Source: Escherichia coli
Lineage (GTDB): Bacteria > Pseudomonadota > Gammaproteobacteria > Enterobacterales > Enterobacteriaceae
DNA: 64,000 nt
Strand: one strand, 5' to 3'
Assembly (NCBI RefSeq): GCF_016026235.1
Contig: NZ_CP065613.1
Shown here: piece after piece, positions 61,596 to 61,924 of the stretch
Position numbering within the stretch: the stretch's first letter is position 1
Layout: each line of letters begins with the position of its first letter
Position numbers and translations under genes: made by a program
Notes under the pieces: generated by a model
Seen by the model: the letters and a program-made list of their open reading frames with translations, nothing else
The model's database searches: none
Told to the model about the DNA's origin: nothing

Positions 61596-61924
61596 GATCA
61601 ATTTTTTATGATCAAGTTTTTTTTAACCGCCATTAACACAATAAACAGGGGGTTATGAAACCTATCCTGCGCCCAAGAAACCACCTTATTTTTATGATTA
61701 TTCTCCCATGACCTCATCACTAAACTTTGTCGTTAACAGTGATAATTTTCTCTTCTCTTTGCTCTGCAAGCCTCGATATCTCTGGGTTCTCAGCTTTTTC
61801 CCGCGCTGAAATTTAGTCGGTAACAAGAACGTTAGCTGACGAAGCATCTTGATAAAAATCAAAAATAAATACGCTTGTAACGCCTTGCGTATTGAATCGA
61901 CGGTTGTATTTCATATATAACTCA

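Follow-up and report, generated by a model that had tools for sequence, protein, structure and literature searches.

A short open reading frame between the divergent chuA and chuT genes of Escherichia coli is very probably a chance occurrence

The divergently oriented genes chuA (minus strand) and chuT/shuT (plus strand) of Escherichia coli are separated by a 683-bp spacer that houses a small open reading frame (ORF) of 18 codons, placed immediately behind a run of G residues that resembles a Shine-Dalgarno (SD) sequence. On the evidence presented here this frame is very probably a chance ORF situated in the non-transcribed centre of the spacer, and neither a gene nor a leader peptide. An earlier note on the 64,000-nucleotide stretch of DNA analysed here (hereafter the window) had proposed that it was either a leader peptide or a spurious ORF, and it is the second of these that is supported by the positions of the mapped transcription start sites (TSSs), by the loss of the ATG in sister lineages and by the shifting length of the frame. 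In the explanation that we favour, two conserved regulatory blocks, one belonging to chuA and the other to shuT, would be separated by unconstrained DNA; the SD-looking G-run would be the outer edge of the upstream promoter block of chuA, and in E. coli proper the first unconstrained bases would simply happen to read ATG and to remain open for at least 18 codons. Such an ORF has little importance as a gene; its interest lies in showing how a well-formed small ORF dissolves under mapped TSSs and sister-lineage alignments.

The ORF, Its Fur Boxes, and the Expectation by Chance

The ORF (61655..61711, plus strand) begins with the ATG at 61655, ends with a TGA at 61709-61711 and would encode the peptide MKPILRPRNHLIFMIILP. 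The SD-like sequence CAGGGGG (61646..61652, plus strand), which is contained in the conserved motif TAAACAGGGGGTTA, is followed by TT and then by the ATG. In these respects the earlier note had read the sequence correctly, as it had in placing the ORF between the two chu Fur boxes. When the whole 64-kb window was scanned with the consensus GATAATGATAATCATTATC, allowing up to 3 mismatches, these two boxes were the sole matches, versus the 0.02 expected from shuffled sequences. Fur box 1, GATAATGAGAATTATTATC (61577..61595), has 2 mismatches to the consensus, overlaps the -10/+1 region of chuA and is invariant across all the alleles aligned; Fur box 2, GATAATCATGATCATTCTC (61928..61946), has 3 mismatches and covers +1 to +19 of shuT/chuT. 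A third candidate Fur box inside the ORF itself, ATGATTATTCTC (61694-61705), resembles part of Fur box 2 and was rejected; the 19-mer in question agrees with the consensus at about 12 of 19 positions by hand count, is specific to the window allele and goes unmatched at up to 3 mismatches.

The two strands of the spacer contain 12 ORFs of at least 18 codons, versus 12.3 +/- 2.3 in dinucleotide shuffles, and by itself the ORF is not beyond chance expectation. What is mildly unusual is the combination of an ATG with so strong an SD-like run: 14% of the shuffled spacers contain at least one ATG ORF with a run of -8 kcal/mol or lower, and only about 4% contain one with a run of -10 kcal/mol or lower, a figure that weighs against the chance reading.

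What the earlier note called a strong SD is strong in its energy but poor in its geometry. The best duplex with the 3' end of the 16S RNA is made by AGGGGGT, at -10.1 kcal/mol, and this pairing ends 1 nt before the ATG. In E. coli initiation, SD spacings under about 4 nt are strongly disfavoured. At those ATGs of long ORFs in the same window that have comparable SDs, and that are likely to be true starts, the spacing is 3-7 nt; the other ATGs with zero spacing belong mostly to short ORFs, or lie beside or inside a longer ORF. The SD-to-ATG distance of the 18-codon ORF, as it is read from the letters, would be unfavourable for initiation.

Transcription on the Two Sides of the Spacer

The chuA coding sequence (660 aa; 59305..61287, minus strand) is preceded by a long 5' untranslated region (UTR; 61288..61578, minus strand), the extent of which is set by published UTR lengths. 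These are 291 nt for chuA in EHEC Sakai, by dRNA-seq (PMC9002310), and between 278 and 342 nt for shuA in S. dysenteriae, by RT-PCR, a method that detected no minus-strand RNA beyond about 61629 in the latter species (PMC3660397). The first of these lengths puts the chuA +1 at about 61578 (minus strand), within Fur box 1 and just downstream of a promoter-like site (61587..61615, minus strand) in which a consensus scan recognized a -35 TTGATC (61615-61610) and, after 17 nt, a -10 AATAAT (61592-61587). At the other end of the UTR, a FourU thermometer (shuA_thermo, Rfam RF02597; 61285-61316, minus strand) scores 60.1 bits against a gathering score of 58. Besides this element, the Rfam search of the spacer returned nothing above gathering score, and matches to Hammerhead_HH9, snoR25, RUF4 and mir-743 lay so far under theirs that they were dismissed as chance. 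The thermometer model attained its gathering score in none of 19 other genera; E. albertii alone reached it.

On the opposite side, chuT/shuT (304 aa from its ATG; 61970..62884, plus strand) has an intact frame in the window and was delimited with the RefSeq annotation of homologous loci. The shuT TSS was mapped by 5'RACE to 42 nt upstream of the ATG, with a Fur site of 3 mismatches at +1 to +19 (PMC5458455), and because this published geometry exactly equals that of Fur box 2, the shuT +1 falls at about 61928. A functional shuT promoter was cloned immediately upstream of the mapped TSS (PMC5458455); the geometry of this 62-nt clone, combined with the sequence of the window, places the promoter at 61892..61927 (plus strand), with a -35 TTGAAT at 61892-61897, a -10 around 61915-61921 and its end at -1.

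With the chuA +1 at about 61578 and the shuT +1 at about 61928, the ORF therefore lies in a gap of roughly 350 bp between two divergent TSSs. Counted from the chuA TSS it covers -77 to -133, on the opposite strand; counted from the shuT TSS it covers -273 to -217, and its stop precedes the shuT TSS by 217 nt and the chuT ATG by 258 nt. Two RT-PCR primers described in the supplement of PMC5458455 match the plus strand downstream of it: shuT-F4, ATATCTCTGGGTTCTCAGC (61776..61794), which starts 65 nt beyond the ORF, and F3, TTGAATCGACGGTTGTATTTC (61892-61912). Neither of them yielded a cDNA product from iron-starved cells (PMC5458455), and from the failure of F4 it follows that no plus-strand RNA was detected from 61776 into shuT. 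Consensus scans of the plus strand recognized neither a sigma-70-like promoter in 61560-61655 nor a terminator-like site in 61200-62100.

It is against these data that the leader peptide has to be weighed. The case for a small upstream ORF (uORF), the translation of which would adjust the transcription or translation of chuTWXY to iron, heme or an amino acid, is that the frame lies upstream of chuT, on the same strand, behind an SD-like run and between two Fur boxes. A leader, however, must be carried on the transcript that it regulates, and the ORF is off it; it is upstream of both mapped TSSs and in neither 5' UTR (PMC9002310, PMC5458455), it is on the strand opposite to chuA, and shuT is served by a promoter of its own beyond the ORF stop, with nothing amplified from 61776 or 61892 (PMC5458455). 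Neither a terminator-like nor an attenuator structure follows the ORF on the plus strand, the three sister lineages described below keep chuT and its promoter yet are without the ATG, and the stop shifts between 18 and 53 codons. The leader-peptide hypothesis seems to us extremely improbable.

The published transcript mapping comes from S. dysenteriae and EHEC under few conditions and is blind to a short plus-strand RNA ending before 61776, and this counts against the chance reading. A different proposal would invoke such an RNA: a small-protein gene of recent origin, limited to E. coli sensu stricto and its close relatives and divergent from chuA, which would be expressed from an unmapped plus-strand promoter over Fur box 1 and be repressed by Fur. 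TATGAT at 61607-61612 could be the -10 of this promoter, with Fur box 1 over its -35 position, but there is no acceptable -35, the scan recognized no plus-strand promoter there and the SD-like run is probably too near the ATG. The remaining evidence on a young gene comes from the annotation records and from the alleles of the ORF.

Annotation and Published Evidence of Expression

Between chuA and chuT, none of the 14 E. coli RefSeq records examined carries a PGAP-annotated feature. Pfam and NCBIfam searches with all the ORFs of the spacer, on both strands, gave nothing above threshold; the sole family match, Casein_kappa, was discarded at 14 bits versus a cut-off of 25 bits. The EDL933 TSS paper has no chu entries, and the peptides found no match in an Enterobacteriaceae microproteome preprint. 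The Ribo-seq study of O157:H7 Sakai was reportedly performed without iron limitation, and the locus would therefore have been Fur-repressed in its cultures. The ORF is absent from the novel translated small ORFs of that strain (PMC5597208 supplements), which constitutes a weak negative.

The spacer has had another hypothetical gene. ECs4381, of 68 aa, was part of the original annotation of O157:H7 Sakai, where it runs across the chuA promoter and 5' UTR at Sakai positions 4391722-4391928, roughly 61438-61644 of the window if the genome version matches. Its RNA-seq and Ribo-seq values are very low (PMC5597208), and it is probably another chance ORF in the same spacer.

Variation of the Frame within E. 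coli

Of the 5426 complete E. coli genomes, 2236 contain the spacer. An ATG followed by 18 open codons, with no internal indel, occurs in all 13 E. coli alleles compared and also in Escherichia sp. MOD1-EC7003. The point at which the frame closes is far less stable: it is 18 aa long in the window and in several D/E-type alleles, which end at the TGA of 61709-61711, 22 aa in XH990, 26 aa in O157, where a 1-nt deletion has removed the TGA, and 53 aa in the B2- and F-type alleles, where the TGA has become CAA. The homologues of this 53-aa form are near-identical E. coli sequences only, some of them frameshifted and none with a Pfam domain, and its variants in the protein databases make use of all three reading frames past residue 22 to 35. 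It is deposited as hypothetical protein CE10_4044 (E. coli O7:K1 CE10), an entry that should not be propagated.

Within the 18 shared codons, a hand count on the alignment of E. coli alleles gave about 14 nonsynonymous and 5 synonymous changes, which when pooled correspond to a dN/dS of about 0.8, a noisy value on 18 codons. Pairwise Nei-Gojobori estimates between divergent alleles, subject to the same noise, range from about 0.4 to 3.5, and one position of the ORF is occupied by four different residues (R, V, G and E). The peptide shows no sign of selection, and the substitution pattern is roughly neutral.

That the ATG and the 18 codons have been held in 13 of 13 E. coli alleles and in MOD1-EC7003 despite many substitutions is a point against a chance ORF, and this retention is compatible with a young lineage-specific ORF, though statistically not compelling. 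Also to the credit of a young gene are the SD-like run, which like the ATG is invariant in the E. coli alleles except E686 (GGGG), and the fact that gene callers have entered the 53-aa form as a hypothetical protein, CE10_4044 being an example. Such a gene would nevertheless have to exist without purifying selection, without conservation of its length (18, 22, 26, 28 or 53 aa) or of its C-terminus, which is found in three frames, without a family match above threshold in Pfam or NCBIfam, and without a listing, itself a weak negative, among the novel translated ORFs of O157:H7 Sakai (PMC5597208). We regard it as very unlikely.

The Frame in Other Escherichia and in Other Genera

Outside E. coli sensu stricto, three of the four other species-level Escherichia lineages have no start codon and a frame-breaking indel. 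At the position of the ATG, E. coli E69 reads AAA and both E. albertii and SCPM-O-B-8794 read ATA, each with a 1-nt indel in the frame. In the 2236 chu-positive RefSeq genomes, similarity to the alleles of E69 or SCPM never exceeds 83%, which confines the observed losses of the ATG to lineages outside E. coli sensu stricto. Neither E69 nor E. albertii has an ATG, GTG or TTG within 15 nt of the G-run, and near the G-run of SCPM-O-B-8794 there is only an out-of-frame ATG that opens an unrelated peptide. All three of these start-less lineages keep chuT and its promoter. With the ATG and the frame lost in three lineages, the ORF therefore lacks the conservation across chu-positive genomes by which the earlier note had suggested judging it. 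The fourth lineage, MOD1-EC7003, keeps the ATG and has an ORF of 28 codons that runs into a repeat-like insertion.

What E69, E. albertii and SCPM-O-B-8794 have kept is AAACAGGGGG and the sequence upstream of it, and CAGGGGG is conserved in 9 of 9 Escherichia alleles, the ATG-less ones included. The conservation of the G-run is, to judge from this alignment, independent of any ORF, and the conserved block to which it belongs would be cis-acting DNA of the chuA promoter.

A scan for the chuA locus in one genome per species yielded 80 loci, among which the divergent chuA-chuT layout was confined to Escherichia. Outside this genus the alignable part is limited to roughly 60 nt beside the chuA start codon; in the other genera the locus is arranged differently, and nothing homologous to the ORF was found. 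In all 8 of the loci outside Escherichia that were examined for it, hemP immediately precedes the chuA homologue and shares its strand (Kluyvera, Citrobacter, Enterobacter, Cedecea, Buttiauxella, Leclercia, Limnobaculum and Leminorella; about 2020-2430, plus strand, in our loci L008, L010, L014, L031, L042, L053, L069 and L086), as part of a same-strand locus of the hemP-R-S-T type. Three of the 8 were confirmed against the PF10636 profile at 60-63 bits and served as positive controls. The remark in the earlier note that iron-regulated loci sometimes carry small ORFs thus applies to the sister loci of the hemPRSTUV type, but not to this one, where hemP is absent; the PF10636 profile had no match among the ORFs of the Escherichia spacer on either strand. 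The slot occupied by hemP in the other genera is taken in Escherichia by the 291-nt chuA 5' UTR. The idea that the spacer or the UTR might be a decayed hemP was abandoned, as tblastn with eight HemP sequences produced short noise matches only.

Comparison with Known Systems

As there is neither a hemP nor a family match, the closest known kind of object is the chance intergenic ORF, of which CE10_4044, the ORF in its 53-aa allele, is an instance and ECs4381, from the same spacer, may be compared. Like these, the ORF is short and of variable length, belongs to no family, occurs in close relatives only and is missing from the RefSeq (PGAP) annotation; it differs in that the window allele, with its 18 codons, is below the calling size of any pipeline.

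Three other systems offer partial likenesses. The peptides trpL, pheL, mgtL and tnaC are leaders of attenuators or of uORF-controlled operons, and they too are small ORFs that have an SD-like sequence and precede an operon on its own strand. Unlike them, the ORF in the chu spacer is upstream of the mapped promoter and outside the 5' UTR, and it has no alternative hairpins, no terminator, no conserved regulatory codons and no conserved start. HemP/HmuP (PF10636) is likewise the product of a small ORF that neighbours a Fur-regulated heme-receptor gene; however, hemP is on the strand of the receptor gene and encodes 54-64 aa with a conserved end, ...GKLILTK (in full, the C-terminal signature ...G(Q)xYxLR(Q/I)TxxGKLILTK), whereas the chu-spacer ORF lies on the other strand and is dissimilar. 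Finally, divergent Fur-controlled promoters such as fepD-ybdA (cited in PMC5458455) share with the chu locus the back-to-back arrangement, the single Fur box for each promoter and the regulatory spacer, but the chu TSSs are about 350 bp apart and the centre between them is unconstrained and hypervariable.

Conserved Blocks and a Hypervariable Patch

The sliding-window divergence of the spacer reveals two conserved blocks that flank the body of the ORF. The first, at about 61558-61656, comprises Fur box 1 and the chuA promoter together with some 75 bp further upstream, and it ends in the motif TAAACAGGGGGTTA (61642-61655), which covers -64 to -77 of the chuA TSS and is conserved in the Escherichia alleles examined. 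The second begins at 61735 within E. coli, or at about 61824 in deeper comparisons, and extends to the chuT ATG; it comprises the shuT promoter and Fur box 2, with about 100 bp conserved upstream of them, and contains a perfect inverted repeat, TTGATAAAAATCAA (61849-61862), that is centred at about -73 of the shuT TSS and is again conserved in the Escherichia alleles examined. By their position, TAAACAGGGGGTTA and TTGATAAAAATCAA are placed where upstream activator or repressor sites would be. Such a map of the chuA-chuT control region is useful for the design of chu reporters and for the study of pathotype differences in chu regulation.

Between the blocks, the body of the ORF and about 25 nt beyond it form a hypervariable patch (61657..61735) which diverges more than any other part of the chuA-spacer-chuT region. 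Compared with the O157 allele, the patch has 7-8 differences per 60 nt, versus 0-2 in its flanks and a chuA dS of 0.027; with the B2 allele, 13-14 differences per 60 nt and a chuA dS of 0.12; and with E69, E. albertii and SCPM, 24-31 differences per 60 nt and a chuA dS of 0.36-0.50. The 54-nt ORF itself differs from O157 at 7 sites and from B2 at 14, the patch has 9-10 segregating sites per 30 nt among E. coli alleles, and a codon-sized spot within it, 61676-61678, exists in four variants. At every depth compared the patch outpaces chuA at synonymous sites, and it differs even between close D/E-type alleles whose chuA 5' UTRs are almost identical. This divergence could be due to a mutational hotspot, to a recombination mosaic or to selection.

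Selection would be the basis of an account in which the coding look of the ORF is incidental and the patch has a function as DNA and is shaped by diversifying or lineage-specific selection, for example as a variable operator or spacer that tunes chuA or chuT differently between pathotypes. The divergence above the level of chuA synonymous sites (7 sites versus O157, 14 versus B2) and the four variants at 61676-61678 speak in its favour, but the numbers are small, an unconstrained stretch with recombination mosaicism fits them equally well, and no conserved motif was found inside the patch; we hold this account to be very unlikely. The same low standing is given to a still more speculative combination, according to which a young Fur-repressed micro-ORF diverging from the chuA promoter would, through its peptide, its translation or its transcription, tune chuA and chuT by pathotype, its hypervariability then being the mark of diversifying selection.

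Variation is not confined to the patch. Between B2-type and D/E-type alleles, the middle of the chuA 5' UTR (61375-61560, minus strand) differs by about 20-35%; the first ~90 nt beside the start codon are almost invariant. The published identity of 83% between the chuA UTRs of EHEC and UPEC (PMC9002310) is in agreement with the mid-UTR divergence seen here.

Rearrangements at the Locus

RefSeq flags shuT as frameshifted in FDAARGOS_943, the spacer of which is 99.9% identical to that of the window, and in O157 strain 10671; the O157 shuT frame meets a stop 13 codons after its ATG, following a T/C homopolymer run. Larger changes were encountered in two genomes. In Escherichia sp. MOD1-EC7003 (locus L007 of our set, reverse complement), an insertion of roughly 125 bp at about 4605-4730 splits the chuA 5' UTR, and beyond about 5038, right after the small ORF, the spacer gives way to a related inverted copy; the inserted sequence resembles an ERIC/IRU repeat. 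No chuT homologue was found in this genome within 2.5 kb beyond the spacer. In E. coli WP4-S17-ESBL-03 (locus L006, 731-1500), a copy of IS26 abuts the spacer at about position 61558 of the window; chuA and its 5' UTR are gone, and Fur box 1, the small-ORF region and chuT have been kept.
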